A DNA stretch of 64,000 nt from Subdoligranulum sp. CAG:314 (GTDB lineage: Bacteria > Actinomycetota > Coriobacteriia > Coriobacteriales > Eggerthellaceae): positions 46,452 through 110,451 of the forward strand of contig CAVHFS010000001.1 of assembly GCA_963635715.1 (NCBI GenBank), in the 5' to 3' direction. Shown piece after piece: positions 40,938 through 49,193 of the stretch (position 1 is its first letter; every line of letters begins with the position of its first letter). Below the pieces are notes generated by a model. It had not been told where the DNA came from. It saw only the letters and a list, made by a program, of their open reading frames with translations, and searched no databases. The translations under genes were made by a program, and so were the position numbers.

Positions 40938-41053
40938 GTTCGCATGGCCTTTCTATTCCGCATGCCGTCGAACGGCTTGTACCCCACGAGTCGCTGCATC
41001 GAGCCTGGCACCGCAAGCAGGCGGCCCGCGTTCGCACTCGATGGCGACGATTG

Positions 41054-41080
41054 TTAGCACTCAATATGCCAGAGTGCCAA
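41054..41080. promoter_or_regulatory. CIRCE (HrcA operator) element
   Basis: TTAGCACTC-AATATGCCA-GAGTGCCAA versus the consensus TTAGCACTC-N9-GAGTGCTAA, one mismatch. 117-143 nt upstream of the htpG ATG. Confidence 0.75.
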
Positions 41081-41086
41081 AAAAGG

Positions 41087-41114
41087 ATTGTAGTCTGCAG
41101 CCCGCAAGTGTCAA
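41087..41114 (-). promoter_or_regulatory. near-consensus sigma-70 promoter of htpG
   Basis: Minus strand TTGACA (41109-41114), 16 nt, TACAAT (41087-41092). CIRCE begins about 7 nt downstream of the -10. Confidence 0.65.
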
Positions 41115-41343
41115 GCAAGCCAACAGCGGCGGAACGCTATGTTGATGCTTTGTTACGCAAGCGATAATCGCACGCCGAAAACCAGCGTCGCGACCATTTG
41201 CCTCGTAGGCCATAGGGGGTAAACGGAAGAAAAAACCGCTATCTATTCCGCATTTTCCAAAAATAATGATTTTCGCGAACTATTTACCGTCATATAATTC
41301 GCGTTATTGATTTTTATTTCAATTTGCGGAGTAGGAATTGTCC

Positions 41344-42555
41344 ATGAAGCTCATAAACCGATCAACCTATATGAACAAACTCGCAAGCGCGATGAACACA
41401 CCCGACATTAAAGTGATCACCGGCATCAGGCGCTGCGGCAAATCGAAGCTGCTCGAAGCGTTCGCCGACCACATACGCAAGTCCAACCCAACGGCGAACA
41501 TCATACGCATCAATTTCAACCTACTCGAATTCGAGCCGCTCATGGAGTACCGCGCGTTGCACAGCTATATCGAAGGGCATTTCGTCGAGGGCTGCGACAA
41601 CGTAATCATAATTGACGAAGTGCAAATGTGCGAAGGCTTCGAGAAAGCAATCAACAGCCTGCACGCGTCGGAGAAATACGATATCTATGTAACTGGCTCG
41701 AACGCCTTCTTGCTTTCGAACGACCTGTCGACCCTGTTCACGGGCAGAACCTTCGAAGTGGAGGTGTTTCCGTTCTCGCTCGCCGAATTCGCGCAATACC
41801 ACGAAATCTCATCGCCCGACGAGGCCTTGGATCGTTACCTGCGGGAGGGCGGAATGCCAGGTTCCTACTTATATCCCGACGAGGGGGCTCGATACGCTTA
41901 CATCTCTGACGTGCTTAGCACGCTCATCCTGCGCGACGTCAAACAGAAATACCGCATACGCAACGTCGAACAGCTCAAAAGAGCGTGCGAGTTCCTCATG
42001 GACAATATCGGCAACATCTCCTCGCTGAAGAACATGGCAGCAACGCTCTCTCAGGCAGGCCTGAGCATCAGCGATAAGACCTTGGCGGCATACATCGACC
42101 ATCTCTGCAACGCATTCGCCTTCTACCAAGTGCGCCGATACGACGTCGCAGGGAAGAAATATCTCTCAACGGGAGACAAATATTACCTGGCCGACCACTC
42201 ATTCCGCTATGCGCAGCTCGGTACCCGCAAGCTCGACTTCGGGCACGTCTACGAAAACATGGTGGCCATCGAGCTCCTGCGGCGCGGGTGGGAGGTATAC
42301 GTTGGCACCCTCTACCAGAAGGAAGTCGACTTCGTTGCCGTCAGGCGGGAACGACGCGTCTATATCCAGGTGAGCGACGACATCTCGCAAGAGGCCACCT
42401 TCGAACGCGAGATTGCACCCCTGCGAAAAATCCGCGACGCATACCCCAAGGCAATCATCGCAAAAACCGGCCACGAAACAACCGACTGGGACGGCATCAA
42501 GGTCATTGACCTGGGACGCTGGCTCATGGGGCAGACTAATGAGATAAGCGATTAA
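41344..42555 (+). CDS. ATP-binding protein, AAA_14 ATPase plus DUF4143
   Basis: Walker A GIRRCGKSKL, Walker B VIIIDEVQ, C-terminal EVDFVAVRRERRVYIQVSD. Paralog of the 7918-9135 gene. Confidence 0.85.
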   Translation: MKLINRSTYMNKLASAMNTPDIKVITGIRRCGKSKLLEAFADHIRKSNPTANIIRINFNLLEFEPLMEYRALHSYIEGHFVEGCDNVIIIDEVQMCEGFEKAINSLHASEKYDIYVTGSNAFLLSNDLSTLFTGRTFEVEVFPFSLAEFAQYHEISSPDEALDRYLREGGMPGSYLYPDEGARYAYISDVLSTLILRDVKQKYRIRNVEQLKRACEFLMDNIGNISSLKNMAATLSQAGLSISDKTLAAYIDHLCNAFAFYQVRRYDVAGKKYLSTGDKYYLADHSFRYAQLGTRKLDFGHVYENMVAIELLRRGWEVYVGTLYQKEVDFVAVRRERRVYIQVSDDISQEATFEREIAPLRKIRDAYPKAIIAKTGHETTDWDGIKVIDLGRWLMGQTNEISD

Positions 42556-42575
42556 GACCGCCCGCGCTTCGCGGC

Positions 42576-43355
42576 CTAATGCTCGCGGTTGCTTTTCTCA
42601 CGCCGCATTTCTTCATACATATCGAGCAGAATGCTTTGCGGAACGTCGCCATCGAAGTAGTCGTCATCGTCTATCATACGCGCGCCTTCGATCTCGATAT
42701 CGACGATGTCGTAGACCGCATGCGCGATGGCAACCACCAGGTAGCTGCCCGTCACCAGAAACGCCACGCCAAGCATAAGCGATACGCCCAGCGTAACGGC
42801 AACCGTGTACGGGTCGCGATAGCCCTCGTGGGCAAGCCAGAACAGCGCTGTAGACGCGACAAGCGCCACGATTGTGGCGGTCGAGCTCGGGACGAAAAGC
42901 GAAAGCACGCCCGTCAGGCCGCCCAACAGCACAAAGCGAAACAGCAGCTCTTCGGCGAAGCCCGCAGCGAACATGCCCGCGAACAGCGAATATGAGCCAA
43001 TACGGGGTATTTCGCCGTTGATGCCCTGGCGATTCCAAACGATGACGGCCCTGCCGGCCCTACTGAGGCTCGCCACGAATTCGGCCGCGCGCGCGAACGC
43101 GAGCATCGCAACCACGACGACGATCGTCGCAATGGCGGTGTCGGCGGCTGAAAGCGCCACGCACGAAGACGCGATGCTGCGCGCCCAGCCGAAGCCGACG
43201 GTGGCGTCGGCCCAATCGCCCGTCGTAGCGCCGCACGCAATGACGGAGCCGACGACCCCGACGACGAGCAGCAGGCTTTCGCTCATGAAAATATTCGACA
43301 GAAGAAGGTCTTCCTCATCAAGGTTGAGCGGGTATTTTTCTCCAGGAAACGCCAT
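42576..43355 (-). CDS. CPBP-family intramembrane glutamic endopeptidase (Abi/CAAX protease-like)
   Basis: EELLFRFVLLG (EExxxR), FWLAHEGY and HAVYD motifs. The start at 43355 is 2 nt after the mutT stop. Confidence 0.75.
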   Translation of the reverse strand: MAFPGEKYPLNLDEEDLLLSNIFMSESLLLVVGVVGSVIACGATTGDWADATVGFGWARSIASSCVALSAADTAIATIVVVVAMLAFARAAEFVASLSRAGRAVIVWNRQGINGEIPRIGSYSLFAGMFAAGFAEELLFRFVLLGGLTGVLSLFVPSSTATIVALVASTALFWLAHEGYRDPYTVAVTLGVSLMLGVAFLVTGSYLVVAIAHAVYDIVDIEIEGARMIDDDDYFDGDVPQSILLDMYEEMRREKSNREH

Positions 43356-43356
43356 G

Positions 43357-43752
43357 CTATGCCAGCAGGCCCTTTTCCTGCATGGCCTGTAAGACCTCGA
43401 TATCGGCACCGAGCCACTTCACGCTGAGCACGTCTACGGCGCCGAGCCATTTGGCATCGGAATGCTCGAGCAAGCGCAAATCGCCCTCGACGACCGAGCA
43501 CAGGTAGCAATCCATGCTCAAATGAAAGTCCGGGTAGTCGTATTCAACGTGGCACAGAAACGAATCGGGCGAAACCGTTGTGTCGAGCTCCTCGTGAATC
43601 TCGCGCACAAGCGCCTCTTCGGGAGTCTCACCAGGCTCGATTTTGCCGCCGGGGAATTCCCACCAGCCAGCATATTCCCCATATCCGCGCTGAGTCGCGA
43701 ACAGTTTCCCATCAACGATAATAATGGCCGCCGCCACCTTGATTGTTTTCAT
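43357..43752 (-). CDS. mutT: MutT-type NUDIX hydrolase ((d)NTP pyrophosphohydrolase)
   Basis: MKTIKVAAAIIIVDGKLFATQRG...WEFPGGKIEPGETPEEALVREIHEELD, a canonical MutT Nudix box. Confidence 0.8.
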   Translation of the reverse strand: MKTIKVAAAIIIVDGKLFATQRGYGEYAGWWEFPGGKIEPGETPEEALVREIHEELDTTVSPDSFLCHVEYDYPDFHLSMDCYLCSVVEGDLRLLEHSDAKWLGAVDVLSVKWLGADIEVLQAMQEKGLLA

Positions 43753-43835
43753 AAAAAGCCGCCTACTCCGACAAAATTTAGACAACACATCTTCCCACAC
43801 GATATGACCAGTAGAAATTGTGGCATGATTTCTTC

Positions 43836-44894
43836 ATGGCCTTATTCGACACCGACATACCAACGGCAATTGACTACGCCCTCATTTCGGCGCCCGTTCG
43901 CGTCGATGACGAATTGCCCGATACCGACCTCACGGTTTCTCGAGCGCTAAGCAAAATTCCCAGCGGCGACAGAGAAAACTACCGCGCACTTTACCGATGG
44001 TTCGAGGAAAACTCGGGCACCGTTGGCTCACGCTTTCTGGGGCAGCGACTGCCCGGCGTTGGCTTTCCTCATTCAGCGCAACGAGGAATACATACTCCTT
44101 CGAAAAGAAAATACGCCGCAACTGTAACGCTCACGAAGAACAGCTCCTATGTCGACGGGGCTTTCGCCGACCTCGGCGATGGAACGTGGGTGCTTCACTA
44201 TTGCGAGCATCGCAATAACGCAAACGGAGCAAAAGTCTCCACGTGGAACCAGCCGCTCATCAATTGCCTCATTGACGGGGTTCCTGTTGGCGTATTCATG
44301 CAAGAAGGGAACTCGTCTCAAAGCTACCTACGCGCCCTCGCCTTCGTCGAGGAATATGACCCAGATTCCGGCGTTTTCATTCTTCACGGACCAGTCTCTC
44401 CCGAAACCGAGCACATCTTCAAAGCGCACGAATCTTCTCAGGCGCCAACGGAGCAAGACGAGCTTCCCTCCGTCGATGAAATCCGAAAAGACACTCGGCA
44501 AACAATACTGAGAACGAACATCGTTCGGAAGGGACAACGGCGCTTTCGTTCAGACCTACTCCAGGCATACGACGGGCAATGCGCCATAACGGGATATGAC
44601 GTCAACCCCGTCTTACAAGCGGCTCACATTCTCGAATACCGAGGAACGCCTTCAAACAACGTCAAAAACGGCATCGTCCTTCGCGCCGACATCCATATCC
44701 TGTTCGACCGCGCCCTCCTCGGAATCGACCCGTCGGACTTCAAGGTCGTCCTATCGAAGAGCATCGCTGATTCCCGATACGAAGACATCAACGGCAAAAG
44801 TATCCAACTACCCAAGGATAAGAACCTTTGGCCAAGCGAAGATTATGTCGCCGCCAGTTTCGCTCGATTCCGGCAGATTCAATCGTCTCTTTAG
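43836..44894 (+). CDS. HNH (HNH_2 type) endonuclease with an N-terminal SRA/PUA-like reader-type domain; candidate modification-dependent (type IV) restriction enzyme
   Basis: C-terminus CAITGYDVNPVLQAAHILEYRGTPSNNVKNGIVLRADIHILFDRALLGID is the PF13391-style HNH. The N-terminal RGIHTP...YVDGAFADLGDGTWVLHYCEH...GVPVGVFM pattern resembles the SRA/ScoMcrA-type fold; this rests on pattern recall, not a search. Confidence 0.7.
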   Translation: MALFDTDIPTAIDYALISAPVRVDDELPDTDLTVSRALSKIPSGDRENYRALYRWFEENSGTVGSRFLGQRLPGVGFPHSAQRGIHTPSKRKYAATVTLTKNSSYVDGAFADLGDGTWVLHYCEHRNNANGAKVSTWNQPLINCLIDGVPVGVFMQEGNSSQSYLRALAFVEEYDPDSGVFILHGPVSPETEHIFKAHESSQAPTEQDELPSVDEIRKDTRQTILRTNIVRKGQRRFRSDLLQAYDGQCAITGYDVNPVLQAAHILEYRGTPSNNVKNGIVLRADIHILFDRALLGIDPSDFKVVLSKSIADSRYEDINGKSIQLPKDKNLWPSEDYVAASFARFRQIQSSL

Positions 44895-44958
44895 CGATCG
44901 CCGCGTAACGGCCTGAAAAATCGAGAGCTCCTGGCCTTTCTCGAAGATCAGACCGCCG

Positions 44959-45336
44959 CTAATCCCATAGATCGCTGGGGACAATCTCTAGCCAGTAGCC
45001 GTCGGGGTCTTCGATGAAGTAGATGCCGAAGCGCGGGTTCACGAAGCATACGCAACCCATTTCGTCGTGCAGCTTGCGCGCAGCCGCTATATCCTCAACG
45101 GCAAACGCCAAATGGGTGTCGCGCCCGCCGTCGCTGCACGGCTCAATGCGCCCGTTTTCCCACGTGAGCTCGAGTTCGAAATCTGTCGTGTCGTTGCCGA
45201 CGTACACGTTTTTCCGCGAGCCGTCTTCTGACCATATCTCGCGAATCATATCGAGCCCAAGCGCCTGCTTGTAAAACGCAAGCGACCTATCCAAATCCAA
45301 CACGCGAATACAACGGTGAACCATTTTGGCATTCAT
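44959..45336 (-). CDS. VOC-family protein (glyoxalase I-like)
   Basis: 125 aa. HRCIRVLDLDRSLAFYKQALGL...THLAFAVEDI...GYWLEIV. Confidence 0.8.
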   Translation of the reverse strand: MNAKMVHRCIRVLDLDRSLAFYKQALGLDMIREIWSEDGSRKNVYVGNDTTDFELELTWENGRIEPCSDGGRDTHLAFAVEDIAAARKLHDEMGCVCFVNPRFGIYFIEDPDGYWLEIVPSDLWD

Positions 45337-45447
45337 GGCGAATCCCCTTTCTTCGCAATCGTTGGATTCGTAGTCTACGGCACCTCGAACAATGCCCCAC
45401 GCGCAATGGACAACTCATCTGCCAACGGCTGGTTCAGCCAAAGCGCG

Positions 45448-45594
45448 TTTTACTTGCTCGTCATTTGCTTTTTTTGGGCCGAAAAGCGGCTATTTTTGGG
45501 CGCTTTCGCGCATCGCACACGTTTGACCTGGGTTTTCGTAAATCGGCTTTACTTGCTTCTTACTTGCTCGTCATTTGCTTCTTACTTGCTTTTT
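45448..45594. repeat. direct repeat DR1 (about 147 bp) with an internal 11-bp periodic A(C/T)TTGCT motif
   Basis: Aligns over its whole length with 47116-47260; I count about ten differences by eye. It contains TTACTTGCTCGTCATTTGCTT twice. Confidence 0.9.
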
Positions 45595-45615
45595 CACGCT
45601 CGAACCCACTACAAT
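45586..45615 (+). promoter_or_regulatory. candidate promoter of the AlbA_2 gene at 45639
   Basis: TTGCTT (the last 11-bp unit of DR1), 18 nt, TACAAT (45610-45615), then AAGGAGG 7 nt before the ATG. Confidence 0.5.
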
Positions 45616-45638
45616 CGCTTCGAACAAGGAGGTTTCCC

Positions 45639-47084
45639 ATGCCCGATTTCAAACTCCTCATCGACAATCTGTGCAATTTGCCGAGCGAAACCGAATACGT
45701 CGAATTCAAGGAAAGCTACTCGGAACCCGACAAGGAGGGGCGAGACATTTGCGCCCTGGCGAATTCGGCCGCGCTCCACGACGCGCGATATGCCTACAAA
45801 GTTTGGGGAATCACCGACGACACGCACGAGGTCGTCGGAACGAGCTTCAACCCGCACACCGCCAAAAAGGGCAATCAGGACCTCGAAATATACCTGCGCA
45901 CCATGCTCAGCTCCAACGCGAATTTCGAATTCAACGAAGCCGAAGTGTACGGAAAGCACGTAGTGGTTCTCAAAATCTCACCAGCCACCCATAGCCCCGT
46001 ACGCTACCAAAGCATCGCCTACATTAGGTCGGGCAGCAGCACACAAAAACTCGAGCAAGGCTCGCAGCGAGAAGCCGACCTGTGGCGCAAAACCGAGCAC
46101 TCGGTTTTCGAATCTCAGATCGCCTTGGACGGGCTCGAGCTCGAAAACGCACTTCAAACGCTCAATTACGACGCCTATTTCAAAATGCTGGGACAAATTA
46201 CGCCGTCGAATTCCGAGGCGATCGCCCATGTACTCGAGGTAGACAAAATTATCGAGCGCCACGCCGACGGCTATGCGATCACCAACCTCGGCGCCATTCT
46301 GCTTGCCGAAAACCTTCAAGATTTCCCTGCGCTTAGAAGAAAGGCGATTCGCGCCATTAAATACACTGGTGACGGCCGCATTTCCATCGAAAAGAATATG
46401 GTCTTCGAAGAAGGCTACGCGACCGCATTTGAGCAGGCATTTCTCTATCTAACAGCCGCCATGCCCTCCGCCGAGCCCATTGAAGGTGCGCTGCGCAAAT
46501 CAAGGCAGGAATTCCCTGGTATCGCCGTTCGCGAGTTGCTCGCCAACGCCATCGTTCATCAGGATTTCCAAGCCACGGGTTCAAGCCCCCTCGTCGAAAT
46601 CTTCGACAGCCGAATTGAGTTCACGAACCCAGGAGTGCCCTTAATCGACCCCAAGAAAATCGTAAACGACCCCCCGCGATCGAGAAACGAGGCGCTCGCA
46701 GCGCTCATGCGACGCATGGGCATCTGCGAGGAAGCGGGAAGCGGCTGGGACAAAATCGTGACCTCGTGCGAAGAGATGCAGCTTCCGGCGCCGATTATCG
46801 AAACGGCGAACGAAACAACCCGCGTAACCCTTTACAGCCATCGAGAATTCAAGGCACTCACTCCCGATGAACGTGCCGATGCGTGCTATTGGCACGTATG
46901 CGTTCGCTACGCTTCGCGAGATTACGCAAGCAACCAATCGCTCAGGGAGCGCTTCGGTCTGAAAGACTCGAATTCGGCGCAGGTGTCGCGACTTATGAAG
47001 TCGTGCATAGACAAAGGGCTCATCAAACTGTCCGACCCCGAAGCTTCGCCAAAGTATCGGCGCTACATTCCAGCCTGGGCATAG
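45639..47084 (+). CDS. AlbA_2 (Schlafen-like) plus HATPase_c_4 plus HTH putative DNA-binding ATP-binding protein
   Basis: MPDFKLLIDNLCNLPSETEYVEFKESYS (AlbA_2), VRELLANAIVHQDFQ...IEFTNPG, RSRNEALAALMRRMGICEEAGSGWDKI. The start follows AAGGAGG. Confidence 0.85.
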   Translation: MPDFKLLIDNLCNLPSETEYVEFKESYSEPDKEGRDICALANSAALHDARYAYKVWGITDDTHEVVGTSFNPHTAKKGNQDLEIYLRTMLSSNANFEFNEAEVYGKHVVVLKISPATHSPVRYQSIAYIRSGSSTQKLEQGSQREADLWRKTEHSVFESQIALDGLELENALQTLNYDAYFKMLGQITPSNSEAIAHVLEVDKIIERHADGYAITNLGAILLAENLQDFPALRRKAIRAIKYTGDGRISIEKNMVFEEGYATAFEQAFLYLTAAMPSAEPIEGALRKSRQEFPGIAVRELLANAIVHQDFQATGSSPLVEIFDSRIEFTNPGVPLIDPKKIVNDPPRSRNEALAALMRRMGICEEAGSGWDKIVTSCEEMQLPAPIIETANETTRVTLYSHREFKALTPDERADACYWHVCVRYASRDYASNQSLRERFGLKDSNSAQVSRLMKSCIDKGLIKLSDPEASPKYRRYIPAWA

Positions 47085-47115
47085 GCCTTAAGCTGAGGGG
47101 TTTACGCTTCCTGGC

Positions 47116-47260
47116 TTTTACTTGCTCGTCATTTGCTTTTTCGCGCCGAAAAGCGGCTATTTTTGGGCGCTTTCGCGCATCGCACGCGTTTGACCTGCGT
47201 TTTTGCAAATCTGCTTTACTTGCTTCTTACTTGCTCGTCATTTGCTTCTTACTTGCTTTT
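47116..47260. repeat. direct repeat DR2, partner of DR1
   Basis: Same order of sub-repeats as DR1. It begins about 30 nt after the stop of the AlbA_2 gene. Confidence 0.9.
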
Positions 47261-47320
47261 CGGCCTTAGCCGCCCCGATTTCGCACATTTTGCCTGCTGG
47301 CCCCACGCCTCCAAACGCAC

Positions 47321-47354
47321 GAAGGCCCCGCGCTCAAACGAACGCGGGGCCTTC
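47321..47354. terminator. strong hairpin (terminator-like) between DR2 and the ferredoxin gene
   Basis: GAAGGCCCCGCG-N10-CGCGGGGCCTTC, a perfect 12-bp stem. The U tracts are weak on both strands. Confidence 0.5.
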
Positions 47355-47376
47355 GACAGTCGTCACACACCGAAGA

Positions 47377-47565
47377 TTAGTCTTCGCTGATCTCGGTGAT
47401 AACTCCCATGGGGCATTCCTCGACGCAATCGCCGCAAGCGATGCAAGCATCCTCGTTTTCGACGACGACAACGCCGCCAGCAATCTCCAAAACATCTTGC
47501 GGGCACGCATCAACGCAAATGCCGCAGCCGATGCATTCGTCGGTTTCAAGCACAGGATGAGCCAT
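47377..47565 (-). CDS. 2x[4Fe-4S] ferredoxin
   Basis: 62 aa with CIGCGICVDACP and CIACGDCVEECP motifs. Confidence 0.85.
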   Translation of the reverse strand: MAHPVLETDECIGCGICVDACPQDVLEIAGGVVVVENEDACIACGDCVEECPMGVITEISED

Positions 47566-47954
47566 GATGTGCTCCTCTCACTTGTATGCTCAGCGCCTAG
47601 GCTGAAGTTCAACACTGACACAGGCCGAGCCAGCACCCCGCCAGCTCGAACCACAGACCGCAAAATACCATTAATCGGTGGCATTGCAAGAAGGATTTCA
47701 GAAATGCCGCCGAACGGTTGTCCGATTCCCACGCAAAGCCGGCAAAACCCCACGTCATTCATGAAAAAGGTAGCCTCATGCAACAAATATTTCTTGTGAA
47801 CTGGCCTGCCTTCGCCAAAAAATCAAACGGATTGCTTGAGGGAATCTGGTTTCTATGGGATACTAACAAACGCGCAATCAGCATACGCACATAACTTTAT
47901 AGGTTTCGCTTACACACACTCAAAACACCGCACGAGCGAAAGGATCCATGGCAC

Positions 47955-48311
47955 ATGGCCACTAAGCTATCGAGAACTTCTTCCCCCGTCGAGGCGACGC
48001 TTTCCTTTATGTCCGATAAATGGAAGGTGCTCATTTTGCGCGACCTGCTCACAGGCACGAAGCGCTTCGGCGAGCTGAAGAAATCCATCGGTAGCATCTC
48101 CCAAAAGGTGCTCACCTCGAATTTACGCGCCATGGAGGAAGACGGCCTTTTGCAGCGCGAGGTATTCGCCGAGGTGCCCCCTCGCGTTGAGTACACGCTC
48201 ACCGATCGGGGTCGCAGCTTGGAGCCCGTCATCGAGGCGATGCGCGTTTGGGGCGAGGCCCATATGGCTGAACTCATAGCCGAAGAAGAGGCCCAATACA
48301 CCCAAGAATAA
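47955..48311 (+). CDS. HxlR-family transcriptional regulator
   Basis: KWKVLILRDLLTGTKRFGELKKSIGSISQKVLTSNLRAMEEDGLLQREVFAEVPPRVEYTLT, the canonical HxlR wHTH. Confidence 0.85.
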   Translation: MATKLSRTSSPVEATLSFMSDKWKVLILRDLLTGTKRFGELKKSIGSISQKVLTSNLRAMEEDGLLQREVFAEVPPRVEYTLTDRGRSLEPVIEAMRVWGEAHMAELIAEEEAQYTQE

Positions 48312-48354
48312 GCCGAGGCGCTCCTGCCGCCCGAGGGCGCGACGGCCTTGGTGG

Positions 48355-48831
48355 CTACGCTCGATTGAGCGTTTTCAGAAGCGCCCAATCGCGCTGCTTA
48401 AGCGCGCTGTCTGACAGGTCGGCCTGAAACGAAGCGAACGCAGCCACAGGGCGCCCTAACAATCGCGCCGAAGCATGCGGAGCGATTCGCGAATGGTACG
48501 CGGTATTGACCATCTCCAAAGCGACCTCGTCGGCAACAATAAGAGCCGCAGGGTCAATCGCCTCTATCACGAACGCCGCCTGCGCGGGCTCCCCCATTTG
48601 CGAGGCGTCGAGCACAACAGAGTCGGCCATGCCGATTTTCTCGCAGGCCGCGCGCAAGGCACCGAGCACCTCTTCGGGCAGCTCCCCAAAGGCAACAATG
48701 CACACGTCGGAATCGACATCGCCATCGATGGCCGCATCGTATTTCGCAAGCTGTTCGAGCTTCGCATCAATATACATGTTACTTTTGGCGGGTTTTTTCA
48801 CACGATTCTCTTTTCGCGCTCCAAATGACAC
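48355..48831 (-). CDS. hypothetical protein
   Basis: 158-codon ORF with protein-like composition, in an otherwise unassigned gap. No family recognised and the start is uncertain. Confidence 0.45.
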   Translation of the reverse strand: MSFGARKENRVKKPAKSNMYIDAKLEQLAKYDAAIDGDVDSDVCIVAFGELPEEVLGALRAACEKIGMADSVVLDASQMGEPAQAAFVIEAIDPAALIVADEVALEMVNTAYHSRIAPHASARLLGRPVAAFASFQADLSDSALKQRDWALLKTLNRA

Positions 48832-48938
48832 TTTTCTAGGACCATAATAGCCCCAAACATACGCGAATCGCAGCGAGGCGAAGCCATCCGAAGGCCGAAC
48901 TAAAACGAGCCCCGCCGCGCGCGATGAGAGGAGAAACC

Positions 48939-49193
48939 ATGTGCACCAACGGCATCAACACCGGTCAATTCGAGCAAATGATCGAACAAATCGACGACCA
49001 CATCAAACTTGAGCGCCGCTGGGCCCACAACCTCGCCCATCAGGCCGAAGATGCGGGATTCAGCGCCACGGGCGAAAAACTGCACGCGGCCATGAGCGCG
49101 CTCGACGAGATTCGCGCGCTGCTCGACGAGGCGAAAGACGCCCTCGAAGACGATGCCGAGGCAAAGCGCGGCGTTACCGTGACGCTGGTATAG
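48939..49193 (+). CDS. hypothetical small helical protein, co-oriented with and 3 nt upstream of nikR
   Basis: MCTNGINTGQFEQMIEQIDDHIKLERRWAHNLAHQAED... (84 aa), preceded by GAGAGGAGA. Its stop is at 49191-49193 and nikR starts at 49197. Confidence 0.45.
   Translation: MCTNGINTGQFEQMIEQIDDHIKLERRWAHNLAHQAEDAGFSATGEKLHAAMSALDEIRALLDEAKDALEDDAEAKRGVTVTLV

Follow-up and report, generated by a model that had tools for sequence, protein, structure and literature searches.

The direct repeats (DRs) DR1 and DR2, which bracket a single Schlafen-type gene in a 64,000-nucleotide stretch of Subdoligranulum sp. CAG:314 DNA (contig CAVHFS010000001.1, positions 46,452 to 110,451, forward strand; hereafter the window, numbered from its first letter), were compared with related loci. 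The explanation that we favour, with confidence somewhat better than even, is that the repeats are copies of a conserved cis DNA module of the gene that they flank, probably bound by the winged helix of its product as an operator or a dock, and that recombination between the copies is secondary. The conservation of the module, its geometry and helical phasing, its overlap with promoters, the concerted evolution of its copies and an empty site were observed in this work, and from them we infer binding of the module by the protein, the stoichiometry of this binding and its regulatory outcome.

The repeat module and the gene that it follows

The features of the repeats and the gene in the window were as follows.

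45448..45594, plus strand: DR1, upstream copy of the module, a promoter-proximal operator-like array (repeat search, MAFFT, BLAST)
45452..45469, plus strand: distal pair of 11-bp units of DR1, ACTTGCTcgtc ATTTGCT
45474..45550, no strand given: spacer (core) of DR1, GC 0.52, holding both non-conserved hairpins and a TGACCTG motif
45551..45590, plus strand: proximal cluster of DR1, four units
45639..47084, plus strand: gene for a 481-residue protein with a Schlafen (AlbA_2) nuclease, an internal winged helix, a GHKL ATPase (HATPase_c_4) and a C-terminal MarR-like winged helix (Pfam, AlphaFold2, Foldseek)
47116..47260, plus strand: DR2, downstream copy of the module, at the family-wide conserved position 3' of the stop codon (repeat search, MAFFT)
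47120..47137, plus strand: first unit pair of DR2, 36 bp past the stop codon
47218..47257, plus strand: second cluster of DR2, four units

The repeats had been described by eye as aligning end to end, and MAFFT placed them colinearly over their full 145-147 bp, with 94.5% identity over 146 positions (7 mismatches, 1 gap) by BLAST. A repeat search of the window returned a 124-nt pair at 94% identity together with a 26-nt unit family. The repeat edges were sharp (45448/47116 on the left, about 45594/47260 on the right), and the gene at 45639-47084 was the only one between them, as first noted. The division of each repeat into two left and four right 11-bp units also held position by position, with the left pair starting at 45452 and 45463 in DR1 and at 47120 and 47131 in DR2, and the right cluster at 45551, 45562, 45573 and 45584 in DR1 and at 47218, 47229, 47240 and 47251 in DR2. 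The start-to-start distance from left pair to right cluster was 99 bp (9 x 11) in DR1 and 98 bp in DR2. The pattern AYTTGCT-N4-AYTTGCT matched 8 times in the 64-kb window, every time within the DRs (0.07 expected), and a 19-mer of the DRs occurred 4 times (0.03 expected). None of the differences between DR1 and DR2 fell inside the six units. The TGACCTG motif of the DR1 spacer was common to Eggerthellaceae relatives.

To place the repeats in their family, loci (designated by L numbers below) were gathered from metagenome contigs by the protein alone and reduced to 43 non-redundant ones, the protein differing by more than 10%. A module was defined as one 7-mer (at most 1 mismatch) found at 11-bp spacing at least twice, in two separate clusters. 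A module starting no more than 60 bp past the stop codon was present at 38 of the 43 loci, compared to 0 of 448 random 330-bp control windows from the loci sampled. The carriers included Coriobacteriia, Bacteroidales, Firmicutes, Spirochaetes, Proteobacteria, plasmids and a phage. Of 39 modules, 27 had their first unit 1-7 bp past the stop codon, and the cluster sizes were mostly 2 and 2. A logo of 183 units gave the 11-bp consensus T-M-A-Y-T-T-G-C-Y plus two variable positions. The strand containing TTG was the coding strand in all 39 modules, with orientation read from the unit sequence; de novo detection finds direct repeats on both strands. A scan with the bare pattern (three phased AYTTGCT units, one genome per species) was noisy, with many unrelated tandem repeats, and is unfit for counting genomic copies. 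Among the 120 matches listed, about 20 loci had a homologue beside the array, and those arrays came from Eggerthellaceae, Lachnospiraceae, Sutterella, Treponema, Bacteroidaceae, Victivallales and Saccharibacteria. The DR is thus tied to the gene family rather than being a dispersed repeat unrelated to it, and presence/absence polymorphism was seen.

The units were retained while the cores diverged in L128, in L110 and in the solo module of L080. Because of this, and because the differences between DR1 and DR2 avoid the units, the units are regarded as being under selection. One of these loci, the 3.2-kb contig L110 (CAVBAM010000238.1), has the glyoxalase flank and both DRs together with an 87%-identical gene and was binned as 'Candidatus Methanomethylophilaceae archaeon'; since its synteny is bacterial and Eggerthellaceae-like, this assignment is most likely a binning error.

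The encoded protein carries both a nuclease and an ATPase domain. Pfam identified SLFN_AlbA_2 (PF04326) at residues 17-138 (E=1.8e-17) and, C-terminal to it, HATPase_c_4 (PF13749) at residues 314-398 (E=2.5e-20). The AlphaFold2 model had a predicted local distance difference test score of 86. In Foldseek searches against the PDB, the N-terminal domain matched the nuclease domains of SLFN13, SLFN5, SLFN11 and SLFN14, the ATPase domain matched histidine-kinase CA and PDK domains, and the C-terminal domain, modelled as helices at 409-458 followed by strands, matched MarR-family winged helices. The sole whole-chain structural relative in the PDB search was 3lmm, an uncharacterised structural-genomics entry. 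Among 19 homologues, the nuclease motif E17-TEYV-E22-F-K24 and the Schlafen box C-A-L-A-N (38-42) were invariant or nearly so; D60 was among the conserved motif residues, and E299-x3-N303 of the ATPase was invariant in the homologue alignment. Judged from these residues, both motifs are intact and the protein is apparently active. Pfam found no receiver domain in the 481 residues, NCBIfam had no family for the protein, and PADLOC returned weak partial matches only (PDC-S50 and a pAgo N-terminal region).

With SLFN_AlbA_2, a GHKL ATPase, the nuclease motif and a C-terminal helix-turn-helix (HTH) domain, the protein belongs to a defence-linked class named "Schlatpase-HTH" or pSlfn-HisKinase-HTH (bioRxiv 10.64898/2026.05.29.728809; bioRxiv 10.1101/2025.07.24.666596; PMC12839542; PMC13462974). 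In the accessible parts of these papers, the term "Schlatpase" is used in one paper only, E-x4-(E/D)-x-K and a SAFAN-like box define active prokaryotic Schlafens, and Schlafen domains are treated as RNases. The same parts place the class in restriction-modification, BREX-related and other defence loci, leave its sensor and activation open, and give tRNA cleavage, ATP-driven tetramerisation and phage defence as demonstrated for SLFN-pAgo and other fusions only.

Homologues at 41-46% identity had the same architecture with altered units, such as TTGCTTGA on a conjugative Providencia plasmid and TTTGAT on a Pseudosulfitobacter plasmid and in Burkholderia phage Musica. When the units were set against the predicted recognition helix, TTGC was found with ..SRLIK, TTTC with SRIIK (L203, L207), and TTGAT with a QASRVIR/QASAVIN helix (plasmid L211, phage Musica L209). 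The unit sequence therefore seems to change in step with the predicted recognition helix.

Distant homologues (23-31% identity) had arrays in other positions or orientations. In L069, L040, L085 and L120 (23-27% identity), three to five AGCAAGT-type units were located on the opposite strand, inside the open reading frame or at its 3' end. In Streptococcus satellite phage Javan114 (L210, 2680-2975), a 36%-identical homologue adjoining an integrase had two GAATTTACTTGGAAAATAAA copies 5' of its start, and the downstream module was absent. In Mogibacterium diversum (L008, 6870-7060), a module of three and then two GATTTGCTCGT units stood directly 5' of a gene starting MKTESTIFDLLRELRESSTVELK, which resembles a distant Schlafen-type N-terminus and was missed by tblastn. 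Three to five tandem copies of pair plus spacer, with periods of about 55-250 bp, were seen in L071 (1-520) and downstream of the genes in L191, L193, L207, L017, L038 and L112; L071 contained four module copies, with no Schlafen gene recognisable in its remaining 150 bp up to the contig end.

Promoter overlap and helical phasing

A second, upstream copy of the module, giving a DR pair, was found in 12 of 38 assessable non-redundant loci, with 73-100% identity between the two copies of a locus. The lineages with pairs included Eggerthellaceae (the window, L110, L004, L132 and Gordonibacter pamelaeae L213), Sutterella, Lachnospiraceae and some low-GC Bacteroidales-like loci. In G. pamelaeae FP929047.1 the DR-gene-DR arrangement is located at about 1.216 Mb. 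In upstream copies, a -10-like hexamer followed the TTGCTT or TTGCTC of the last or penultimate unit at 16-18 bp, or a unit made TGCTATAAT, so that the upstream copy resembles the gene's own promoter and operator. The layout of a -35 within a unit, 16-18 bp and a -10 was present in L110, L128, L129, L004, L132 and L213, and in several relatives the units supply or overlap the -35 or the extended -10 of the gene promoter. Two Gordonibacter-type contigs with an identical protein (L215, L216) had 4 and 5 units in the promoter-proximal cluster, which suggests slippage-type array variation.

The transcription signals around the gene in the window were as follows.

45586..45615, plus strand: putative promoter TTGCTT-18-TACAAT, with its -35 within the last unit of DR1 (direct reading)
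45626..45632, plus strand: ribosome-binding site AAGGAGG (direct reading)
47320..47355, no strand given: bidirectional hairpin resembling an intrinsic terminator, 16-bp arms, 94% complementary (repeat search)

Direct reading found both hexamers of the promoter proposed earlier, with the putative -35 in the last unit of DR1 (TTGCTT at 45586-45591, TACAAT at 45610-45615), although a consensus scan did not call this promoter, since TTGCTT shares just 3 of 6 positions with TTGACA. The hairpin at 47320-47355 closes both the transcription unit of the gene with DR2 and the convergent ferredoxin gene.

The distances between the two clusters were quantised, at 65, 76-78, 87-89, 96-101, 106-112, 117-119 and 132 bp, that is 6-12 helical turns with a period of 10.8-11 bp (Rayleigh R 0.73, p~1e-9; value reached in 0 of 5000 null draws). 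Such spacing is expected of proteins that bridge two clusters, because these must share one face of the duplex. The suggestion in the preliminary description that the 11-bp phasing resembles iterons or cooperative operators gained support from the array across phyla, from clusters in helical register and from the promoter overlap in relatives.

The same arrays were also considered as an RNA element, in which the transcribed repeats would be a 3' untranslated region or small RNA offering ACUUGCU motifs to the Schlafen RNase, or an inhibitor like a type III antitoxin. The orientation of the units in 39 of 39 modules, the location of the module past the stop codon and ahead of an intrinsic terminator (the window, L148, L176 and L147), and the RNase nature of Schlafen domains are all compatible with this explanation, and the downstream units are co-transcribed given that strand and position. 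We nevertheless consider it improbable. The helical-period spacing of the clusters has no RNA rationale. Overlap with the promoter leaves most of each upstream copy outside the transcript of the gene, and the array lies 3' of the gene and is not the long tandem array of ToxI-type antitoxins. The RNA folds of DR1 and DR2 were no better than shuffled (z = +0.6, -0.4); in six modules the z-scores ranged from +0.6 to -2.9, mostly near 0 with the solo module of L080 as the exception, and the spacers did not align. Rfam matched no family to the module, either in the window and DR region (gathering and E-value modes) or in 16 related loci (gathering mode). The two small hairpins first noted do exist in the DRs but are not conserved, being absent in the 87%-identical L110 and, for one of them, broken without compensation in a strain 98% identical over the locus. 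Since the spacing is helically quantised and several RNA-level signals are absent, a role at the DNA level is favoured, with the C-terminal winged helix as the likely reader. Separately, a consensus scan flagged GGCCGAAAAGCGGCT with a T-run in the DR1 spacer as a terminator; this candidate was rejected, as terminator-like hairpins occurred in 2 of 39 spacers against 1.3 expected.

Based on these results, a mechanism can be proposed. The module consists of two clusters of direct 11-bp units, each with about 8 conserved positions (TMAYTTGCY) and a variable linker, held on one helix face by the spacer. The C-terminal winged helix of the Schlafen-nuclease/GHKL-ATPase would be its most likely ligand, sitting head-to-tail on each pair, and on the canonical 2+2 site a dimer of dimers would bridge the spacer of about 100 bp. 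The copy 3' of the stop codon, as in DR2, would be the ancestral and family-wide one. It would catch the protein where it is encoded, perhaps in the role of an operator for genes further downstream, of a roadblock or of a nuclease-restraining dock. In the lineage of the window the module would also have been copied upstream as DR1, whose last units overlap the -35 and may thereby bring about autoregulation. A crossover between DR1 and DR2 would occasionally delete the gene and leave a solo module, and gene conversion would keep the copies alike.

Several points weigh against this reading. The covariation of unit and helix comes from few independent lineages and is confounded by phylogeny, and the 11-bp quantisation could partly stem from unit-sized indels in the spacer instead of selection for phasing. 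A host protein other than the Schlafen product could be the ligand. That the units occupy the coding strand and, in downstream copies, the stretch from stop codon to terminator fits a role at the RNA level too. A further point is the weak consensus match of the window promoter. The purpose of an array 3' of the gene is left unexplained where the next gene is convergent, as it is in the window.

A more specific form of the dock was weighed separately, namely that the downstream 2+2 array is less a transcriptional operator than a cis-encoded parking site which holds the Schlafen-ATPase tetramer inactive at its own locus. New protomers would be held by their C-terminal winged helices on four phased sites as a DNA-bridging tetramer, and infection, DNA damage or competition for the winged helices would free or reorganise this tetramer into an active, tRNA-cleaving form, making the array comparable, at the DNA level, to the inactive guide-RNA filament known from SLFN-pAgo. 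Consistent with this, the module is kept whatever adjoins it downstream (a convergent gene in the window; hsdS, hsdR or DUF1156 elsewhere), 1-7 bp past the stop, the nuclease and ATPase motifs are intact, and relatives reside in defence loci. By analogy, an ATP-driven tetramer such as that reported for SLFN-pAgo and its Schlafen-ATPase module would match the four sites of the array, and a stoichiometry of four sites per tetramer is predicted. However, this form is drawn by analogy only and offers no obvious account of solo modules and multi-copy arrays, one chromosomal site holds few protomers, and the promoter-overlapping upstream copies argue for ordinary regulation as at least part of the function. 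It was therefore judged rather unlikely; if true, a short piece of chromosomal DNA would take on the role that an antitoxin or guide RNA has in other systems.

Recombination between the copies and the empty site

Direct repeats 1.67 kb apart are expected to recombine, and two observations bear on this. In strain L122, which is 98% identical over the locus, the same four substitutions were present in both DRs, so the copies homogenise by gene conversion; the divergence between the strains was 4-8% in the DRs compared to 1.8% in the surrounding DNA. Furthermore, the empty site that the preliminary description had proposed to look for, a single DR without the gene in a relative, was found in L080, a contig of a Slackia metagenome-assembled genome. 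This contig carries one intact module and no Schlafen gene, and is syntenic with the window on both sides, with the glyoxalase gene (81% amino acid identity) upstream and mazG-like, ferredoxin and HxlR (93%) genes downstream. The extra mazG-like gene is apparently also present in L128, by reading of its downstream flank. The left flank of the L080 module resembles that of DR1 and the right flank that of DR2. Within the same species, the loci retrieved through the exact ferredoxin and glyoxalase proteins were either occupied or on contigs that broke off within the DR.

These observations could also be those of a mobile cassette, in which the DRs are recombination sites and the gene is excised with one DR as a 1.67-kb circle that inserts at solo DRs. 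The single-module empty site at an orthologous position agrees with such a cassette, as do DR-gene-DR arrangements in unrelated chromosomal contexts (the window, Gordonibacter L213 and L004), the concerted evolution of the DRs, solo modules in several gut genomes, and 1.7-kb contigs that start and end in the DR with 30-bp terminal overlaps. Excisionase-type winged helices, moreover, bind direct repeats one helical turn apart. However, about two thirds of the lineages are without an upstream copy and thus have no recombination partner for the module, and many homologues are fixed in restriction or defence operons. Neither the 481-residue protein nor its neighbours in the window showed a recombinase domain, and a serine recombinase stood downstream in only one of about 13 annotated relatives (L183). 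Hybrid halves of the attL/attR type were not found, both DRs being complete modules of 145-147 bp, and module cores of different species are too diverged for homologous capture. In the assembled contigs no circular junction was seen. The terminal overlaps are uninformative on circles, because a k=31 assembly graph yields a k-1 overlap for any gene between repeats. The empty site of L080 is explained as well by a deletion between DR1 and DR2 as by the insertion of a circle. A mobile cassette was for these reasons held to have little probability.

Recombination between the DRs, one of the two possibilities first raised for the paired arrays, was thus upheld by the gene conversion and the empty site, but bracketing and excision as the point of the element were not, given that most relatives have the downstream copy only and lie in restriction or defence operons, that no recombinase adjoins the element and that its two hairpins are not conserved. 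On the favoured reading of a cis module bound by the protein, excision is a plausible side effect and not the function. Recombination between direct repeats would be a small-scale route to the loss of such genes while their sites persist, and the flanking DRs explain the frequent metagenome contigs of about 1.7 kb with Schlafen-ATPase genes.

Solo modules, with two unit clusters and no homologue in the surrounding 8 kb, were seen in L105, L081, L083, L033, L016 and L070, from genomes of Spirochaetales, Oscillospiraceae, Lachnospiraceae, Collinsella and Succinivibrionaceae.

Locus context and comparison with known systems

Loci without an upstream copy were typically inside operons, such as hsdM-gene-hsdS, methylase/hsdS-gene, SNF2-gene-DUF1156, DUF1156-gene-DUF499/HEPN, or an Eco57I-type fusion followed by the gene, and plasmid-borne homologues had similar restriction or defence settings. 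The window gene is instead flanked by a divergent glyoxalase-family gene upstream and the convergent ferredoxin gene downstream, with an HNH_2 gene nearby. The region 41000-49000 had a GC content of 0.51-0.58, compared to about 0.60-0.65 elsewhere in the window, and contains an AAA_14/DUF4143 ATPase gene (41338-42555), NUDIX and Rce1-like genes, the gene for the HNH_2 protein (43818-44894), which resembles a phosphorothioate-dependent restriction endonuclease, and the Schlafen gene. The region is possibly a small island of the defence type. At 47319-47356, Rfam gave weak sub-threshold matches to the mycobacterial F6 small RNA on both strands (28.5 and 26 bits; gathering score, 46). These were rejected as chance, the scores simply reflecting the GC-rich terminator hairpin. 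tRNA genes are common integration hot spots; in L148 and L150 an opposite-strand tRNA gene was seen, by reading only, about 110 bp away from the gene start.

The order of gene, iteron set, spacer and iteron set, directly 3' of an ATPase with a winged helix, recalls a replication origin, in which the gene would encode the initiator and the flanking iterons form the origin, as in the rep-ori of satellite elements or in the P1 and F replicons. Homologues on plasmids, in a temperate phage and in streptococcal satellite phages are in line with this. However, the protein is a Schlafen nuclease with a GHKL ATPase and matched no known initiator or helicase by Pfam, NCBIfam or fold search, and the spacer lacks the AT richness of an unwinding element (GC 0.52-0.54 compared to 0.55 for the window gene; mean difference of spacer minus gene over 39 modules, -0.05). 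The locus is chromosomal, among housekeeping genes, or lies inside restriction operons, and the carrier plasmids have replicons of their own. An origin was therefore considered highly improbable.

The protein family itself is known. Schlafen-ATPases with a C-terminal HTH domain are among the commonest prokaryotic Schlafen architectures. They made up 19% of 5,930 proteins in the accessible part of one survey, and another survey gave, in its accessible part, 60,692 proteins with the Schlafen-ATPase pair. The described Schlatpase-HTH proteins share with ours the domain architecture, the E-x4-E-x-K motif, the PF13749 ATPase, the C-terminal winged helix and residence in defence loci. In contrast, the accessible parts of those papers deal with the protein alone, and repeat arrays beside the gene do not come up in them. 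A cis module of two phased 11-bp clusters after the stop codon, with an optional upstream duplicate, was not described in the parts of the literature examined; the module is new here to that extent. A sequence-defined DNA partner beside the gene offers an experimental handle on what activates Schlatpase-HTH proteins, through binding and structural probes and a simple genetic test; for Coriobacteriia, tools for genetic work are available (PMC9734109).

Tandem sites spaced by one turn are known for winged helices of the PhoB and excisionase types, and an 11-bp unit with a conserved core and a variable linker resembles them. The pho box of PhoB/OmpR-type regulators has 7-bp direct repeats with a 4-bp linker and thus an 11-bp period, and the likeness extends to the presumed head-to-tail binding of winged helices and to the overlap with the -35. 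Unlike these regulators, the protein has no receiver domain, its clusters are 6-12 turns apart and the main copy lies 3' of the stop codon of its own gene. Among centromere and iteron arrays, ParR-parC of plasmid R1 has its par promoter between two sets of 11-bp direct repeats. There, as here, two phased clusters flank a core, and in ParR-parC the product of the neighbouring gene binds them cooperatively under autoregulation, whereas our loci have no partition ATPase or actin-like partner, a different protein fold and a chromosomal or defence-operon setting. In the rep-ori of staphylococcal pathogenicity islands, iteron sets flank a spacer immediately 3' of rep, and the specificities of Rep and iterons are matched. 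Our loci share with it the paired sets of short repeats, their location immediately past the gene and the covariation of repeat and protein, but in our loci the spacer is not AT-rich and the protein is neither a helicase nor an initiator. Type III toxin-antitoxin systems differ in having a long tandem array that is transcribed upstream of the toxin gene, with a terminator between the two, whereas here the conserved array is downstream in two short clusters and the upstream copies overlap the promoter. The regulators of defence loci, namely the C proteins of restriction-modification systems, BrxR/CapW and RptR, are small dedicated repressors that act on inverted or short repeats upstream of genes. 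They resemble the present case in being DNA-binding proteins encoded inside a defence locus with operator repeats for their own control and possibly that of adjacent genes, and differ in that here the DNA-binding domain is fused to a nuclease and an ATPase, both apparently active, and the conserved site is located 3' of the gene.

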